Shown here piece by piece: positions 1 through 20,000 of a stretch of 20,000 nt of DNA (positions are counted from its first letter, which is position 1; each line of letters opens with the position of its first letter). The notes beneath the pieces were generated by a model. That model searched no databases and was not told the DNA's origin. It worked only from the letters and a program-made list of their open reading frames with translations. The translations under genes and the position numbers were made by a program. The stretch is from an uncultured virus (IMG/VR IMGVR_UViG_3300025121_000020). Lineage: Duplodnaviria; Heunggongvirae; Uroviricota; Caudoviricetes. The stretch lies in the IMG/VR virus record IMGVR_UViG_3300025121_000020; one strand, given 5' to 3'.

Positions 1-1
1 G

Positions 2-148
2 GCTATGGCGCGGGCGCTGGCGGAAGGGCTCGAGGATGCGGACTGGATCGGCGGGCTCGAAGATGATGACGGAACGGAGCGGCCGCTGGACGAGGACGCG
101 CGGGAGATGGCGGGAAGTGTGGAGGAGCCTGCGGATCAGGCGTACTGA
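2..148 (+). CDS. 3' end of an upstream gene (partial), acidic C-terminus
   Basis: Frame +2 reads AMARALAEGLEDADWIGGLEDDDGTERPLDEDAREMAGSVEEPADQAY* with TGA at 146-148. It is open to the window edge and has GC3-rich codons. Confidence 0.55.
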   Translation, partial: AMARALAEGLEDADWIGGLEDDDGTERPLDEDAREMAGSVEEPADQAY

Positions 149-343
149 GGTTACCAACCATCAACGAACCGTCCGGCATCAGGTGAGCCGGAAGTCCCGA
201 CCTAGCCCAATCGGGCGGGTGACTCGATTCATCCCAGTCCCCGGCTATGTCCCGTGAAACGGGAAGTGAGTTCGTACACACGACGCGTCCCTCGCATGAA
301 ATCAGGAACTGAACGCGTCGCTGGGGATCAGGGTTTATTTTTC

Positions 344-504
344 GGCAGGGAGCGCTCCCGACTCCCCACTGACGAAACATCGGGAGGGCGGGTGGCACCG
401 CGCGCTTTTTATAGACCTTTGGAGCAAAGCAGCCAAACCGAAGGATGCTGGCAAGAGCATCCTTTGACCCAGCGGGGGAGGCCGCGTGCCTGACAGCGGG
501 ATTT
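344..504 (+). ncRNA. Putative structured RNA element, copy 1 of a ~160 nt repeat
   Basis: Aligns end to end with 960-1117. Stems include CTCCCGA/TCGGGAG, GCTTT/GGAGC and AAGGATGCT(441-449)/AGCATCCTT(456-464). G-U pairs favour the + strand. Confidence 0.6.
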
Positions 505-649
505 TACTACTCAGGGAGCGCTAATCTAGCCCCGGTAGTGGCTTCGTCGGGATCTTAATTCGCCTGCGGAGTAATCGGTCGATCTGGACCGCCCCGGGAA
601 ACAGGTATTTCGCATACCTTTGGGTATGTAGAGAGAAGCAGGATTCCAG

Positions 650-913
650 ATGGACGACATGCACATTCGCGACGCTCTGCAAGCTTTCAAGCGGTCTGCG
701 GAAGTTGGGGTCGAGGAAATAGAACGGAACCGCTGTAGAGTCGAGAACGGGTGGCTCGTGCTCCAGAAGAGTGGGAAGCCGCACACGGCTTCTGACGGCG
801 TAGAATACGCCCCGCTCGATCCGATCGTGTACTTCGACGAGTTTTTCGCCAGAGTCGTGGCGAAGTCGATCGAGGGGTCGGTGGTGACGGTGAGAGAGTA
901 TTTGGAGGGGTGA
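650..913 (+). CDS. Hypothetical phage protein (87 aa)
   Basis: Natural-looking composition, purine-rich upstream sequence (GAGAGAAGCAGG) and same orientation as the arm. Confidence 0.7.
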   Translation: MDDMHIRDALQAFKRSAEVGVEEIERNRCRVENGWLVLQKSGKPHTASDGVEYAPLDPIVYFDEFFARVVAKSIEGSVVTVREYLEG

Positions 914-959
914 TGCCCTCGATACCTCCTGATCGCTTTTCAAAGTAATCTAGTGCGCA

Positions 960-1117
960 GGCAGGGGAGCGCTTCCGACTCCCTGGCTCCAGAACATCGG
1001 GAGGGCGGGTGGCACCGCACGCCCTGAATATCTCTCGGGGCAAAGCAACCAGACCAGGAATGTGTTGGTGCACATCCTGACCCAGCGGGGGAGGCCGCGC
1101 GCCAGACAGCGGGATTT
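960..1117 (+). ncRNA. Putative structured RNA element, copy 2 of a ~160 nt repeat
   Basis: Shares blocks AACATCGGGAGGGCGGGTGGCACCGC, GCAAAGCA, TGACCCAGCGGGGGAGGCCGCG and GACAGCGGGATTT with copy 1. The variable segments still fold: GCCCTGA/TCGGGGC and CAGGAATGTG/CACATCCTG. Confidence 0.6.
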
Positions 1118-1144
1118 ATTATCTATAACTCGAGGTGCGCGTAC

Positions 1145-1990
1145 GTGAACCACCACCACATCAAGCAGGCACTCTCCCTTCTTGGCTTCGACCCTCTCCC
1201 GTCTCCAGATCGCGCCGGCATGCTCGATCAACTCGACGTCGCCGCGCGGTCCGTCGGGTACGACGTTTCCTGGTACCTGACTTCAGACGCCACTTTCCAC
1301 CGTGGTTACGTGCTGGGGTCGCTCGGTTGCGCTCTCCTGGACGGCGTCGCGGGGTACGAGGGGGAGCACGTGGCCGCTTACCGTGACGGGTACCGGTTGG
1401 GCCTGGCGAGTCGGGAGCGCCTCAGCCCCCCCTCTCATCGCGATGTCACGCGGGGGGCACCGCTGCCTCTCTCGGATACTACTCCCGATCGACGCGTAGC
1501 GCAGCCCATGGTGTTCGGTCGCGGCGCTGATGGGTTCTTCGTTCCCGTCGGGCACGCGGTCCACGTGCTGAGCGAGCGCGTGGATGTGCACGGGAACGCC
1601 TACCTGCTCGCGGAGTGGGGAGGATTCCTCATGCTGGTGGGGGAGCCCGAGCGGAAGCTCGCGCCCGTCGCGGGGTTCGAGAGAGACGTCGACCGCGCGG
1701 AGATCCTGCGCGAGTGGTTCGAGGGGCCGGATCCTGGCATCTGGGAGGAGGACGCCGTGCTGCACGCCCGTCTGCTTGAGCTGGTGCCCACGGCGGGGAA
1801 GCGAGACGTGCAGACCGCACGCACGGCGTACGGTCGGCGCAAGGATGACCAGGCTCTCGGTTGGGTGCAGGCCAGAGTGTACGCTATGAAGGAATGGCGT
1901 AAGACCGATACATCGCTGTCTTTTACGGATCGTTTCGCGTCCCTGCCCGAACTGACCCGCTTGTCGTGCGCGTGCGCGAGGGGCATGTGA
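1145..1990 (+). CDS. Hypothetical phage protein (281 aa)
   Basis: GAGGTG RBS before the GTG start. Its TGA overlaps the polymerase GTG start (GTGA, 1987-1990). Confidence 0.8.
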   Translation: MNHHHIKQALSLLGFDPLPSPDRAGMLDQLDVAARSVGYDVSWYLTSDATFHRGYVLGSLGCALLDGVAGYEGEHVAAYRDGYRLGLASRERLSPPSHRDVTRGAPLPLSDTTPDRRVAQPMVFGRGADGFFVPVGHAVHVLSERVDVHGNAYLLAEWGGFLMLVGEPERKLAPVAGFERDVDRAEILREWFEGPDPGIWEEDAVLHARLLELVPTAGKRDVQTARTAYGRRKDDQALGWVQARVYAMKEWRKTDTSLSFTDRFASLPELTRLSCACARGM

Positions 1991-4827
1991 CGGAAGACGC
2001 TGCATACCTGGCAGGATACTCCCTCTGCCGCACCGCGGACGAGTGGCGCGCGTGTCTCCGTGATGCGCAGGACGCCGCGGAGGTAGCGGAAGACTACGAG
2101 ACGCGTCCTGCGCCGGATATGTACTCGCACGAGAAGAGCCCGCTCCGTCCCGAGCAGGGAGCGCTCATTTGCGGTATTTCCCTCGCGTGGAGGGCGGGGG
2201 GCGCACTGCGCTCCTGCTACGTCGGATTCCGCCACGACCCGCGCTGGCAAGTTGGGTCGCAACCGGACGCGGAGGAGGTGCTCGAGGCGTACAGGGAGTG
2301 GTGCAGGAAACGAGAGAAGATCTACCTATTAGACCGATGGCGTGGTCTTCGCATTTGTCACAACATGCGAATGGAGGACTCCCAGAACCTCCGGGAACAG
2401 ATTCCCTGGCCGCTGCAGGGGCAGCGCCACGACACGATGCCCGCCTATCGCATCACGTCTCGTGGTGTCGGGATCCGGGAAGTGATCGGCTTGAAGTCCT
2501 TGCGCAACAAGTGGCTCCCGGGGCGGGGATACGCGGATCAGAAGGACGAACTGGACGCGTGGCTCAAAGGTAAGGGCTACAAGGCGGGGCGCGACATCTG
2601 GCGCGCGCCGATAGAGCTGGCAGGCAAGTACGGGGCCGGTGACACGTGCTCGAACCTCGAGCTCTGGGAGCTGGTGAAGCCCGAGCTGTTCCGCCCGCAC
2701 GACGGCGGGCTCGGCTGGTGGTGGCAGCGCGGGCACTTCGAGATCAAGGGGGAGCAACCCCTCGCTGACCTGTACGAGCTGGAGATCGAGACGTGCGCGC
2801 AGGCGGTCCTGATGGGGCACGCTGGGAGCCGCTTCGACTTCGCGAAGGCCGAGAAGCGCGCGGCACAGGCTCAGGCACTGCGAGACGCGTGCGACGCGTG
2901 GGTGCGTGACCACCTACCTGCCGATGCTGGGTGGATATCTAAGGGGAAGGAGTTCAACGCTGGTTCCACTCAGCACGTCCAGCGCCTCTTTTTCGGGGAC
3001 GGAGGAGAGCACGCGGGCTTCGGGCTCGAGGTGTCCGCCGAGCACATGAGCCAGAAGTTTCAGGAAATGAGCGCGGCGCAGCAGGAGGCAGCGCTGGCCG
3101 ATCCGGTCAAGAAGATCCACTACGCGGCGCTGGACGTCGCTGCGATGGATCACTACGCCAGGGAGTATCCGGAGCATGGGGACATCATCTTCATGATCGG
3201 CGTGCGGCGCAAGATGATGACGGTGCTCACGTGGGCGCAGAAGGTACCGGATCGTTACGCTGTGCGCGCGTGTCCGGATCCGTGGTGGGACGCGACAGAC
3301 CCGGATCGACCGTCGGTGGATTTGATATTCCATCAGATCGGCACGGTTCAGACGATGCCGGGGCGCATGAGCAGCTCGGACTACAATGGGCAGAACGTGA
3401 GCGCCGACAAGGTACTGCAGATCAAGGGGAGGGCAATGGCGCTGCTGTCCGCGCACATGGACGTGGATGCCTTTGGCGCGCTATCGCGTCTCCTGGAACC
3501 TCGGGCGGACGGGAGCGTCGATCTGGGGATTCGGTGCCTGTTTCTGACGCGGGAGGGTAGCGCGGGAGCCCCGATCGACATGTCCCAGATCGAGGTGCGA
3601 GGGTTCGCCGGCCTGACGAAGAACAAGATGCTCTGCGAAGGGTACGGTGTTCCGCCGACGCAGGAACAAGTGGCCGCGGAACTTGGCCTCCTGCGGGCAG
3701 TCGGAGAAGGTAGGCTGACGACTGAGGAGTACCTGGCGCAGTGCGTGCTGGACCCCCTCCGGCACTGGCGCGGTGTCCCGATCGACGCGCACAGCCTGGT
3801 GGCGTCCATGACGCTGGATGACGCCGACGTCCGCAAGATGCTGGGGGTCGACGTCTCGCGCGAAGTCTTCGACGACGTATTGCAGCTCGTGGCGTCTGAT
3901 GAAGAGCGTGCCGCGCTCCTGTCCCTGATGATGCTGGGGGACGTGGAGGTGGACCAGGACCAGGACGCGGCCGCAGTCGCCGTAACACACGCGAGGAAGG
4001 GGACGTCTCCAGCGGGGGCGTTGGTTCGGGAGATGCCCATTGAGGCGATTCGAGACGCTGTTCGCGGTTTAGACCCTCAGCGTGTAGGGTCCGTCGAAGC
4101 ATTCGTAGACATGCTCGTGAAGCTTCGAAAAGGCAAGAAGAGCATCACGTTCGGCATCATGTACGGCATGGGTGCCGCGAAGCTCGCTCGGAGCCTGGGA
4201 ATGACGTATCTCGAGGCGCGCGACTTCCTGGACAAGAAGTATTTCGCGCGCTTCCCAGAGGCGAAGACGATCCCGAAAGACATCGAGCGAGCGATCATCC
4301 GGCGCGCTAATGCGGGCAACGACTGGGTAGGGTGGATGCGGAACCCGAGCGGGCGCAAGTTTACCTTCCGCGTCGAGTGGCAGCACTACCCGTCCGATCC
4401 GAAGTGCTCGGCGTGCGGGAAGCTCCCGGACAGGACGCGCTTCCGCCCGTGCGACAAGTGCCACCTGTCCGCCGTCGGGGCGTACGTGGCGGTGAACAGG
4501 TTCATCCAGGGGTACGCGGCGGCGCTCTACAAGGTGGGGTATGTGCGGGCGAACCAGCTCCTGGGGATGCGCACCTTCGGGGGAGGTGCCGTGCACCCGG
4601 TCACGCGACGACCGACGCAGAAGAGTTTCGGGGAGCGGGCGATCCACGACGAGACGATTTTCATGCTCCGGAAGGAGATCGACACCCCGCTCACGGATTA
4701 CTGCCTGCGGAGCGCGATGACTCTGATGACGGGGGTGGGTGTGCCGCTCGAGACGAGCTCGGAGAGGTACGAGAGAGAGTGGGGGAGGAAGAGGAGCGTG
4801 AAGTTTACGAGGTTTGAAGTAGCGTGA
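1987..4827 (+). CDS. polA: Phage family A DNA polymerase (3'-5' exonuclease + polymerase domains, no 5'-3' exonuclease)
   Basis: ExoI DYET, ExoII HNMRMED, ExoIII YGAGD, GRMSSSDYNGQN, motif A DMSQIEVR, motif B RKGKKSITFGIMYG, AVNRFIQG and motif C IHDE. Start placed at GTG 1987 (GAGGGG RBS, overlap with upstream stop). Confidence 0.93.
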   Translation: MTEDAAYLAGYSLCRTADEWRACLRDAQDAAEVAEDYETRPAPDMYSHEKSPLRPEQGALICGISLAWRAGGALRSCYVGFRHDPRWQVGSQPDAEEVLEAYREWCRKREKIYLLDRWRGLRICHNMRMEDSQNLREQIPWPLQGQRHDTMPAYRITSRGVGIREVIGLKSLRNKWLPGRGYADQKDELDAWLKGKGYKAGRDIWRAPIELAGKYGAGDTCSNLELWELVKPELFRPHDGGLGWWWQRGHFEIKGEQPLADLYELEIETCAQAVLMGHAGSRFDFAKAEKRAAQAQALRDACDAWVRDHLPADAGWISKGKEFNAGSTQHVQRLFFGDGGEHAGFGLEVSAEHMSQKFQEMSAAQQEAALADPVKKIHYAALDVAAMDHYAREYPEHGDIIFMIGVRRKMMTVLTWAQKVPDRYAVRACPDPWWDATDPDRPSVDLIFHQIGTVQTMPGRMSSSDYNGQNVSADKVLQIKGRAMALLSAHMDVDAFGALSRLLEPRADGSVDLGIRCLFLTREGSAGAPIDMSQIEVRGFAGLTKNKMLCEGYGVPPTQEQVAAELGLLRAVGEGRLTTEEYLAQCVLDPLRHWRGVPIDAHSLVASMTLDDADVRKMLGVDVSREVFDDVLQLVASDEERAALLSLMMLGDVEVDQDQDAAAVAVTHARKGTSPAGALVREMPIEAIRDAVRGLDPQRVGSVEAFVDMLVKLRKGKKSITFGIMYGMGAAKLARSLGMTYLEARDFLDKKYFARFPEAKTIPKDIERAIIRRANAGNDWVGWMRNPSGRKFTFRVEWQHYPSDPKCSACGKLPDRTRFRPCDKCHLSAVGAYVAVNRFIQGYAAALYKVGYVRANQLLGMRTFGGGAVHPVTRRPTQKSFGERAIHDETIFMLRKEIDTPLTDYCLRSAMTLMTGVGVPLETSSERYEREWGRKRSVKFTRFEVA

Positions 4828-4871
4828 GGTGCTCTCCAGAGCTGATTCAATACTTGAGGAAAGGATGTTCA

Positions 4872-6044
4872 ATGTCCGACAGAACTAACGTCACCATTGT
4901 TGCCGACAGTCGCAACGTTGCCACCGGTGACCGCATTACTACCTTTCTCCTCTCAAACCTTATGGCGGTTGAGTTGATCGACCTCCGGACGCACCGGGCT
5001 ACCTCGTGGTCGGTGCGCTCGAGCCGGACGATGCCCCCGGACGAGTTGCGGCAGTCGTGCTGTGACACTCCCAACGGCCCGGACGCGTGGTACACTCCAG
5101 GGGAGGGAAAGATGGGGAGGGGAGATATTCTAAAGAGCGATACCTTTCCTTTTCTGTGGAAGGAAGCGGCCGGGAGTGCAGCATCGTTTCACGCTGTGTT
5201 CTGCCAGTACGGTGCCCACACCGAACTCGCCAATATGCTCCTCCTACCCTTCCTGCGCTACTCGGCCGTGGTTACGACTACGGAGTGGGGCGGGTTCTTC
5301 GCTCAGCGTGCAGTGCTGGACGATGAGAAGCACGGTCCGCGGCGGGACGTGCGCTTGCGGGTTCTGGAGATGCGGAAGCAGTACGAGGCATCGGCACCCG
5401 TACTTCTCACCCCAGGAGAGTGGCACCTTCCTTTTGTGACGCGGACGGAGCGTGCGGGCTCGAGCGCGGAGGACTGTGTCAAGCTCAGCGTCGCCCGTTG
5501 CGCGCGAGCGTCAACAGGCAAGGAAGGCGCGGGGGGCGCCGGCCTCTACGACTGGCTCCTTCGGCAGACACCGATGCATACCGGGCCGCTAGAGCACGCG
5601 GCGGAGGCTGCGCCATTCTCCGGGAGATTCGGAAACCTAGTCGGGTGGCGTAGCGTGCGGAAGGGTATCCCCGGGGAGGCGAACGGGGACTACACCAAGA
5701 AGATCGAGGTGGTCTACGTCGCCGGTCCGTTTCGCGCCGCTACAGGATGGGGCATCGAGCAGAACGTGCGTAGGGCAGAGCAGGTGGCGCTCGAGGTGGC
5801 GCGGCGGGGGTACACGTACCTGTGCCCGCACATGAACTCGAGGTACTTCCACGGGGAGGGGAGCGAAGCCTACTGGCTCGAGGTGACACGGAAGCTCATG
5901 CGGCGCAGCGATGCGCTGGTGCTCGTTGAGGGATGGGAAGAGAGCCGTGGAACACTAGGGGAGATCAAGGAGGCGAAATGGCTGGGGATGCCGGTGTTCG
6001 AGAGGGTGGAAGACTTGCCTTGTATTAACAATCAGAGAGGTTGA
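4872..6044 (+). CDS. thyX: Phage ThyX-like (FAD-dependent thymidylate synthase) domain fused to a C-terminal nucleoside 2-deoxyribosyltransferase-like/DUF4406-like domain
   Basis: N-terminal motifs IVADS..RITTF, THRATSWSVRSSR (RHRxxSxxxxSxR-like), GEWHLPF, SVARCARAS, PLEH and GNLVGW. C-terminal motifs YVAGPF...CPH...SDALVLVEGWEESRGTLGEI. ATG 4872 follows GAGGAAAGGA. Confidence 0.8.
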   Translation: MSDRTNVTIVADSRNVATGDRITTFLLSNLMAVELIDLRTHRATSWSVRSSRTMPPDELRQSCCDTPNGPDAWYTPGEGKMGRGDILKSDTFPFLWKEAAGSAASFHAVFCQYGAHTELANMLLLPFLRYSAVVTTTEWGGFFAQRAVLDDEKHGPRRDVRLRVLEMRKQYEASAPVLLTPGEWHLPFVTRTERAGSSAEDCVKLSVARCARASTGKEGAGGAGLYDWLLRQTPMHTGPLEHAAEAAPFSGRFGNLVGWRSVRKGIPGEANGDYTKKIEVVYVAGPFRAATGWGIEQNVRRAEQVALEVARRGYTYLCPHMNSRYFHGEGSEAYWLEVTRKLMRRSDALVLVEGWEESRGTLGEIKEAKWLGMPVFERVEDLPCINNQRG

Positions 6045-19125: not shown

Positions 19126-19889
19126 TCGGCCTCCAGATGAGTGGATTTCCACGCACCGGCATTCAGCAGCGCGATCGTCAGCGCGACGTTGACAGCAGGT
19201 GCGCCGAATGCGGCCATGAAGGCCTGTACCTCAGTTAGCGCAGCAGCTAGTGTGGTGTGAAAGCTTACCGCTACCCCGTCCACGATTGCGGCACTGGTGA
19301 CACCGCTCCCGTGTATCGTCGTCTTTCCCCCGTGCGTGATGACCTCTATTGCGTCTGCCTCGATCGTCGTGTATCCCGCCGCACTCAGGGAGAGATCTTC
19401 CGACGTGTTGATAGCCGTAGATCCGCTCGTAGAGATGGTGAACCCTGCCTGTCCGTTCGCGCACAACTCCGCCAGCACTTGCCCGCGCTCGTCACCGGTG
19501 GACGGGTCGATCGATAGGTATTTGAGCGCCACGCGGTCGTCGTCGGTCACATCGTTGTCGAGCCAGTCGTCCTCTGCGACGCGGCACGATGCCATCACGA
19601 CGGGTTTTCCCGCGTATCCGGTCACGTAGTCCACGAAGACGGGCTCGGGGGGAGTTACCCAGGACTTCCCATCCCCGGTTCGTACCCCGGGACGAGGGGT
19701 CAGATTCGATCCGTACGGGCGCGCGACCAGGTAGTACCGGGGGGAGTAGGCGATGGGAGCTCGGCCGTCCCCGCGGGCCACCACGAGCCACACGTCGTCA
19801 CCGCGGCGCTCGAGCCACCCGCGCGCGGGGCCTGTGTAGCCTCCGCGATCAGTGTAGGGGATGGGGGATTCGTAGCCGCGCTCGTCCAT
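19122..19889 (-). CDS. Putative baseplate spike (gpV/gp45-like)
   Basis: PVFVDYVTGYAGKPVVM resembles the end of an OB-fold. Repeating beta-strand segment FTISTSGSTAINTSEDLSLSAAGYTTIEADAIEV. Position upstream of the gp25 and J genes fits. Confidence 0.6.
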   Translation of the reverse strand: MDERGYESPIPYTDRGGYTGPARGWLERRGDDVWLVVARGDGRAPIAYSPRYYLVARPYGSNLTPRPGVRTGDGKSWVTPPEPVFVDYVTGYAGKPVVMASCRVAEDDWLDNDVTDDDRVALKYLSIDPSTGDERGQVLAELCANGQAGFTISTSGSTAINTSEDLSLSAAGYTTIEADAIEVITHGGKTTIHGSGVTSAAIVDGVAVSFHTTLAAALTEVQAFMAAFGAPAVNVALTIALLNAGAWKSTHLEAE

Positions 19890-19893
19890 AGGA

Positions 19894-20000
19894 TCCTAAG
19901 TCGGGAATACTCCTAAGTCGGGAATACTCCTAAGTCGGGAATACTCCTAAGTCGGGAATACTCCTAAGTCGGGAATACTCCTAAGTCGGGAATACTCCTA
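19894..20000. repeat. Perfect 17-bp tandem repeat (TCCTAAGTCGGGAATAC), at least 6.3 copies, truncated by the window edge
   Basis: Directly visible: six identical units plus TCCTA, with no spacers. Confidence 0.97.

Follow-up and report, generated by a model that had tools for sequence, protein, structure and literature searches.

Two copies of a candidate structured RNA ahead of the replication genes of a phage-like genome

Introduction

What is the element of about 160 nt that occurs twice, on the same strand, just ahead of the replication genes of a phage-like genome, and is it selected as an RNA? We addressed this question in a stretch of 20,000 nucleotides from an uncultured virus (IMG/VR record IMGVR_UViG_3300025121_000020), hereafter called the window. 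A sequence-only reading of this DNA had described two collinear copies with near-invariant blocks at 344-504 and 960-1117, had noted hairpins at matching positions and a possible pseudoknot, and had suggested that the element is a structured RNA outside the known families. Here we report what further analysis of the two copies, their surroundings and their possible relatives revealed, and which functions may be considered for them.

Results and Discussion

Genome context of the element

The window has a G+C content of 62%. A replication and nucleotide module lies on its + strand and includes a family A DNA polymerase gene (1966-4827), together with genes for a fusion of a thymidylate-synthase-like protein and a deoxyribosyltransferase, a thymidylate kinase, a 5'-3' exonuclease, a GNAT acetyltransferase and a CHAP lysin. 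The structural genes, including that of a baseplate J-like protein, lie on the - strand. The fusion protein (406 aa, 4824-6044) matches a thymidylate-synthase-like PHROG family over residues 54-302 and DUF4406 over residues 296-391, the latter forming a nucleoside 2-deoxyribosyltransferase-like C-terminus; this hints at a role in modified-nucleotide metabolism. At the end of the window (19877-19995), upstream of the - strand structural operon, we also observed about seven head-to-tail repeats of the 17-nt unit TCCTAAGTCGGGAATAC, which might function as iterons, in packaging or in regulation.

A 54-kb JGI metagenome contig (locus L015) has the same sequence as the window and carries, upstream, a gene for a Dam-type methyltransferase and a 380-aa gene without known function whose end corresponds to position 148 of the window. 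The sequencing runs that carry the stretch are labelled as groundwater or soil metagenomes, and in the runs of two further studies (P5 and P6), which carry no flag as a possible source, 60-72% of the sampled words were present. None of the listed runs carrying the stretch is an RNA run.

The DNA polymerase (953 aa) has a single clear relative. A search of proteins in 5.8 billion clusters returned three proteins at E<=0.001, one of them the polymerase itself; of the remaining two, one showed 50% identity and the other was marginal (E 7.5e-4, with 6% of the query covered). The tblastn search with the polymerase against GenBank phages (50,697 records) gave no match, megablast of positions 1-6000 against the same records gave no DNA match, and no relative was found in IMG/VR either with the polymerase protein or with the two-sequence polymerase alignment. 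By these searches, the phage lineage is very isolated.

Two + strand open reading frames (ORFs) adjoin the element. One (650-913, 87 aa) lies between the copies, and the other (1145-1990, 281 aa) begins with a GTG at 1145 directly after the second copy and overlaps the start of the polymerase gene at 1966. Their G+C contents at the three codon positions (0.62/0.38/0.74 and 0.73/0.49/0.78, respectively) show the pattern of certain genes, as in the thymidylate kinase gene (0.70/0.39/0.75). Neither ORF matched a Pfam or PHROG family. The 281-aa protein had no sequence match in the PDB, its AlphaFold model was unusable (pLDDT 35), and its matches in the ESM Atlas were all below 0.8.

Two copies of one element

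Copy A occupies positions 346-504, between the 380-aa gene and the 87-aa ORF, and copy B occupies positions 962-1117. Both are intergenic, both lie on the + strand, and they are 617 nt apart. The collinear copies described earlier are real, with starts at 346 and 962. Their mean column identity in a MAFFT alignment is 81-84%. We built a covariance model from both copies (R1), a check that the sequence-only reading had proposed, and scanned 26.7 kb (the window and L015, both strands, filters off). Copies A and B scored 201 and 191 bits, respectively, and the next-best match only 14.5 bits; thus, there are exactly two copies in these 26.7 kb. Four DNA runs were also examined, and no diverged copy of the element was found in them; one contig from the DNA runs carries a C1018T variant of copy B.

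The similarity between the copies begins sharply at about 346 and 962 and mostly ends at a conserved GGGAUUU, with weak similarity persisting beyond the U-rich tract into the ribosome-binding region. The 3' end of each copy has a conserved CGGGA followed by this U-rich tract, at 497-508 in copy A (GGGAUUUU) and at 1110-1121 in copy B (GGGAUUUAUUAU), which may mark where the fold ends or serve as the tail of an attenuator. The 11-nt sequence that opens copy A at 346-356, CAGGGAGCGCT, is found a second time at 512-522. This second occurrence is perfectly complementary to 352-359, and it aligns with the ribosome-binding region of copy B, GAGGTGCGC (about 1131-1139). In addition, each copy contains three GGGAG segments and two segments of the CUCCC type.

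In a structure-guided alignment of 161 columns, built from coordinates, 39 columns differ between the copies. The differences are unevenly spread: they affect 26 of the 42 columns in hairpin loops or indels and 8 of the 42 stem bases, but only 5 of the 77 columns in junctions and tails (Fisher p 9e-11, a value that is descriptive only because the three classes were set after the alignment had been viewed). Seven single-column gaps separate the copies and correspond to five indels, each 1 or 2 nt long, which are incompatible with a shared reading frame. We also considered whether the element encodes a leader peptide, and rejected this reading: the indels disrupt the frames, the frame opened by the AUG at 445 stops after six codons in copy B, and the ORF at 254-493 that overlaps copy A lacks the codon-position G+C pattern of coding DNA.

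Hairpins conserved by compensatory change

Three hairpins are present at matching positions in both copies, as the first reading had held. P1 has 7 bp in each copy (355-361/380-386, spanning 355-386, in copy A; 972-978/997-1003, spanning 972-1003, in copy B), and in copy A it closes an 18-nt loop with a variable 5' part and can be extended by pairs 352:389 and 353:388. P2 has 5 bp, two of them U.G, in copy A (404-408/421-425) and 7 bp in copy B (1021-1027/1035-1041). P3 has 11 bp and a 6-nt loop in copy A (439-449/456-466), and 9 bp with a bulged A in copy B (1055-1064/1071-1079).

The internal segments had been described as almost completely different in sequence between the copies while still forming hairpins. 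The first half of this description was overstated, given that 7 of the 9 shared P3 pairs and 3 of the 5 shared P2 pairs are identical, but what did change is compensated. In P3, pair 448:457 changes from C-G to U-A and 449:456 from U-A to G-C, and a 2-bp indel is itself paired (440-441/464-465). In P2, pair 406:423 changes from U-A to C-G and 407:422 from U.G to C-G, and copy B gains two extra pairs. The C-to-T change reported in the first stem is likewise tolerated through wobble pairing, pair 357:384 of P1 being C-G in one copy and U.G in the other. There are thus three doubly compensated pairs (406:423, 448:457 and 449:456) and two one-sided changes that pass through G.U (357:384 and 407:422). 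Although eight stem bases changed, each of the 21 stem pairs that the copies share is canonical in A as well as in B; when eight stem changes were placed at random in 200,000 permutation trials, all pairs stayed canonical in a fraction of 5e-5.

Across both copies there are five G.U pairs. On the opposite strand these would be A.C, and therefore the fold belongs to the + strand, which is also the strand of the flanking genes. The compensated stems, the five wobble pairs, the freely varying loops and the near-invariant junctions together support the earlier proposal of selection on a + strand RNA structure. This covariation comes from two paralogs in one genome, since no homolog was found in the collections searched, and gene conversion could be an alternative cause of the invariant blocks. 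Nevertheless, two paralogs are sufficient to reveal a constraint on the hairpins.

Searches for known families and homologs

The element matches no known RNA family. In agreement with the earlier impression, the Rfam scan proposed at that time (Rfam 15, 4227 models, whole window) gave no match at gathering score, and searches at E<=10 on 1101 nt and on 196 nt returned nothing relevant; the best sub-threshold matches over the element were to unrelated families, at 12-15 bits. ARAGORN called neither a tRNA nor a tmRNA.

We also looked for relatives in phage and metagenome contigs, as had been suggested. A blastn search with the element against GenBank phages (50,697 records) found no homolog. 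Scans of IMG/VR for exact or degenerate blocks gave 3, 9, 2, 87 and 11 loci, all of them chance matches; the first two sets were judged by eye and the others were scored with R1 (80 loci in the case of the 87-locus set), the best score being 13.9 bits. A two-block pattern found three loci in JGI metagenomes, two of them chance matches and the third in L015, that is, in the same phage, and four loci in GTDB genomes, all by chance. Hence the search returned no homolog besides the phage itself, although diverged relatives may have been missed, because the block scans require exact matches to the chosen blocks. The element is probably a structured RNA that has not been described before; with two paralogous copies behind this claim, we treat it as a candidate and not as an established class of RNA.

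Long-range pairing and folding energy

The sequence-only reading had also proposed a pseudoknot between the P1 loop and the downstream tail. The complementarity exists, CUCCCC at 362-367 facing GGGGAG at 475-480, but it is no better than chance: when the tail was shuffled 2000 times, a 6-bp match arose 572 times for copy A and 1736 times for copy B. Both ViennaRNA and RNAalifold favour a different long-range helix, in which 387-390 and 392-396 pair with 481-485 and 487-490 (387-396 with 481-490 in copy A; 1004-1013 with 1094-1103 in copy B). ViennaRNA gives it a pair probability of 0.74-0.79 in both copies, and the difference U487C, which turns G.U into G-C, strengthens the predicted helix. 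Outside P1-P3 the fold is ambiguous, because both copies accommodate, equally well, a number of 4-6-bp helices that exclude one another. The folding energies are unexceptional, with z-scores of -1.84 and -1.17 (10 and 24 of 200 shuffles, respectively, folded equally well), and this counts against the functional reading that we favour below.

Other noncoding features around the copies

Further noncoding sequences near the copies have features of their own. Positions 549-641 (about 93 nt, between copy A and the 87-aa ORF) contain the hairpin GGTAT-TTCGC-ATACC and recur in contigs from other runs, with flanks unlike those of the window; one such contig of 151 nt has a single difference, and three others span 531-645 at lower identity. 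This segment has the appearance of a small module of its own, either conserved or mobile. Upstream of copy A, the noncoding stretch 180-332 is matched, with two differences, by a 153-nt contig that comes from a run of another study, and other conserved noncoding elements may be present in the 500-nt intergenic region. The sequence TAATCTAG occurs exactly twice in the window, on the + strand both times, just after copy A (522-529) and just before copy B (946-953); it might represent a -10-like box or belong to the unit that was duplicated.

A possible cis-acting leader

What, then, might the element do? We consider it quite possible, if somewhat short of probable, that it is a new cis-acting structured leader RNA that controls the downstream replication genes. 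The distance from copy B to the GTG at 1145 is 28 nt, in which a GAGG is found; this gap leaves no room for a separate promoter, and copy B must thus be part of the mRNA of the 281-aa ORF. Because copy B lies within this mRNA, because the weak similarity extends into the ribosome-binding region, and because 512-522 repeats the opening of copy A and is complementary to part of it, we favour action in cis. The distance to the next start codon is 146 nt for copy A and 28 nt for copy B, which excludes a simple distance-dependent mechanism common to both. A scan of positions 1-2200 called neither a sigma-70-type promoter nor an intrinsic terminator (consensus terminator scan).

According to this proposal, transcription of the + strand would yield the element as the 5' leader of genes of the replication module, with copy B leading the 281-aa ORF and the DNA polymerase, and copy A leading the region of the 87-aa ORF. 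P1, P2 and P3 would be joined by the highly conserved junctions and by the predicted helix 387-396/481-490, and the conserved 3' tail would finish with a U-rich tract immediately upstream of the ribosome-binding site. The conserved core may bind some factor, and in response alternative pairings of the repeated GGGAG and CUCCC segments may set transcription or translation into the downstream genes; the U-rich tail and these segments would be where read-through or ribosome access is set. Near-invariant junctions beside freely varying loops are to be expected where an RNA has a specific partner or a specific pocket for binding. Besides the folding energies, the lack of a called promoter or terminator, the missing homologs, the competing helices and the unequal distances to the start codons, it counts against this leader that there are only two sequences, paralogs of one genome.

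Such an arrangement resembles riboswitch leaders built around multi-helix junctions, which share with the element variable peripheral hairpins around near-invariant junction strands and a conserved 3' tail, U-rich at its end, which in our case precedes the ribosome-binding site of copy B. The element differs from them in that it matches no ligand class among the 4227 Rfam models, forms a family of two sequences, and has no clear terminator/anti-terminator pair.

Alternatively, each copy might be a small RNA in its own right, about 160 nt long and paralogous to the other; the two would have their own promoters, end at the U-rich tract and act in trans, for example by pairing of their CUCCC segments with ribosome-binding sites of the GGGAG type. 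The abrupt start of similarity at about 346 and 962 and its end, for the most part, at GGGAUUU are what a discrete gene and its 3' end would show. Hexamers rich in AT stand shortly upstream (TATTTT at 336-341 and TAATCT at 946-951), and each copy has two CUCCC-type and three GGGAG segments. However, no promoter or terminator was called, the stem before the U tract is weak, and the weak similarity continues past this tract into the ribosome-binding region. Moreover, ViennaRNA predicts the C-rich segments to be paired and not looped out, and read-through would be required in any case, since the 281-aa ORF starts 28 nt past copy B with no room for a promoter. We consider stand-alone RNAs unlikely.

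Another explanation is that the element, like the HK022 put RNAs or Bacillus EAR, acts in processive antitermination: the nascent folded RNA would bind the RNA polymerase that transcribes it and allow read-through of terminators farther down the early/replication operon. The put RNAs are smaller than the 160-nt element, and put also has two related copies in one phage. Both put and EAR act as RNA elements without protein factors, according to PMC11658703. The element would share with them the character of a folded RNA of a mobile element that heads a long operon, in cis if our proposal is correct; it is a phage element with two related copies heading early-type genes, and it combines several hairpins with conserved unpaired segments. 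However, it shows no likeness in sequence or model to put and EAR, nor to any Rfam family. It is also larger, its copies stand in series on one strand, 617 nt apart, and not behind separate divergent promoters, and no terminators were called in the + strand operon right after them. This explanation is improbable.

About equally improbable is an element that proteins would read at the level of DNA; it could be an operator or promoter region in duplicate, a replication-origin module or hairpins of single-stranded DNA. The element does adjoin replication genes, GGGAGCGCTCCC at 348-359 is a perfect 12-bp palindrome, the 11-nt direct repeat flanks copy A, TAATCTAG is present exactly twice in the window, and G.T pairs are tolerated in hairpins of single-stranded DNA too. 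However, protein sites in double-stranded DNA keep their sequence and not their pairing, and here the stems change while the pairing is kept. In addition, the five wobble pairs fit one strand only, and there are neither iterons nor an AT-rich unwinding block in 149-1144.

A T-box core-like motif

A hairpin followed by the T-box core GGGUGGCACCGC(G/A), the order seen in T-box discriminators, is present in each copy. We noticed this motif after the fact and then checked it against the output of the tools. The 13-nt core GGGUGGNACCGCG is matched exactly at 390-402 of copy A, which reads GGGUGGCACCGCG, and with one mismatch at 1007-1019 of copy B, which has A at the last position; at up to one mismatch, 0.34 matches are expected per window. 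For comparison, the Rfam consensus of four Streptacidiphilus T-boxes reads AGuG-[Stem III]-AAaU-aGGG-UGGUACC-GCGag...cuCGU-CCCu, and 23 actinobacterial T-boxes have GGUGGNACCGC in common (23 of 30 loci; five from unpublished-flagged genomes and two partial loci without this domain were left out). With core profiles of 23-28 columns, the two best matches in the window were the two copies, at marginal E-values of 0.06-0.08 and 0.18-0.36.

For the T-box discriminator, PMC7583486 gives the order 5'-RRRxG, Stem III, 3'-AA purines. The upstream layout of the element (GAGCG, hairpin P1, purines, G-rich strand, UGGCACC, GCG) is collinear with the discriminator as described there. By eye, in the two sequences, GAGCG (350-354) precedes P1, and GG (387-388), not AA, follows it. 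Where UGGN forms the 5' edge of a 7-nt bulge in a T-box, ViennaRNA pairs GUGGC with 481-485 in the element. The 11 A1/A2 pairs have no mismatch in 20 of the 23 actinobacterial T-boxes, and their 3' strands abut after a short loop. Such abutting A2/A1 3' strands are absent from the element, in which CGCGU, a possible A2 partner seen by eye about 80 nt downstream, has GCCU instead of CCCG after it.

A dedicated discriminator model built from the 23 actinobacterial T-boxes (R2; filters off, E<=10) gave no + strand match on either copy. The T-box model RF00230 had no match at gathering score, nor at E<=10 on 1101 nt or 196 nt, and in a control it recovered four T-boxes in genome G003. Neither a Stem I nor a specifier codon is present, and the genes after the element (the 87-aa ORF, the 281-aa ORF and the family A DNA polymerase) are not amino-acid related. 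Because the A1/A2 antiterminator helices and Stem I are absent, neither model matches, and the downstream genes are of another kind, we rejected the identification of the element as a T-box. What the element and T-box riboswitches have in common is the 13-nt core, a variable hairpin with purine-rich flanks upstream and a leader-like position ahead of genes; in addition, the GGAGGG of actinobacterial T-boxes resembles the G-rich 5' strand of the element. In contrast, T-boxes have a short A2 loop after the core where the element has about 80 nt with two hairpins, they have a Stem II or pseudoknot that it lacks, and they precede genes for aminoacyl-tRNA synthetases and for amino-acid biosynthesis or transport, not phage replication genes.

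We also considered the possibility of a T-box-derived sensor of the tRNA 3' end. In this case UGGC would take the GCCA end of an uncharged tRNA as its partner in place of the internal GCCG (481-484), and the 3' tail would be re-set, so that the expression of replication genes would be coupled to the charging or damage of host tRNA. The element would then be related to the T-box discriminator, in a minimal form carried by a phage; it would capture the NCCA of uncharged or damaged host tRNA through UGGC-ACC and switch the replication genes on, with a new fold around the sensor and no codon-reading Stem I. The core match, exact in copy A, the ranking of both copies at the top of the profile search, the collinear layout and the predicted pairing of UGGC with the internal GCCG are in its favour. 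However, the profile E-values are marginal for a motif noticed after the fact, copy B and its C1018T variant (one contig) deviate inside the motif, and the missing model matches, A2/A1 strands, Stem I and specifier, together with the kind of genes downstream, weigh against it as they do against T-box identity. We consider such a sensor, and likewise a minimal discriminator with a new fold, quite improbable. A literature search for T-box elements in phages returned unrelated papers only.

Likeness to self-cleaving ribozymes

HDV-like ribozymes form a nested double pseudoknot (P1, P1.1, P2, P3/L3 and P4) with a G.U at the cleavage site. The strand order of the element resembles their layout: the 5' strand of P1, a pseudoknot strand, a short insert, the 3' strand of P1 and GG are followed by a large variable domain and a second pseudoknot strand, P1 having 7 bp and the junctions being highly conserved, so that P1 (355-361/380-386) and the pairing of CUCCCC with GGGGAG (475-480) would permit a nested double pseudoknot. 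However, a self-cleaving ribozyme is very improbable here, given that no Rfam ribozyme matched, the pseudoknot is not above chance, the copies share no conserved P3/L3 hairpin, and P1 opens with a C-G pair where G.U is typical. The remaining probability falls to explanations outside those named.

Implications

The embedded T-box core offers a concrete and testable candidate partner for the element, namely the tRNA 3' end. We know of no earlier leader in a virus that senses the end of a tRNA, and if such capture were true of this element, it would be the first. More generally, if the cis-acting leader that we tentatively favour is real, it would represent a new family of folded regulatory RNAs, placed at the entrance to the replication module of an almost unknown phage lineage.
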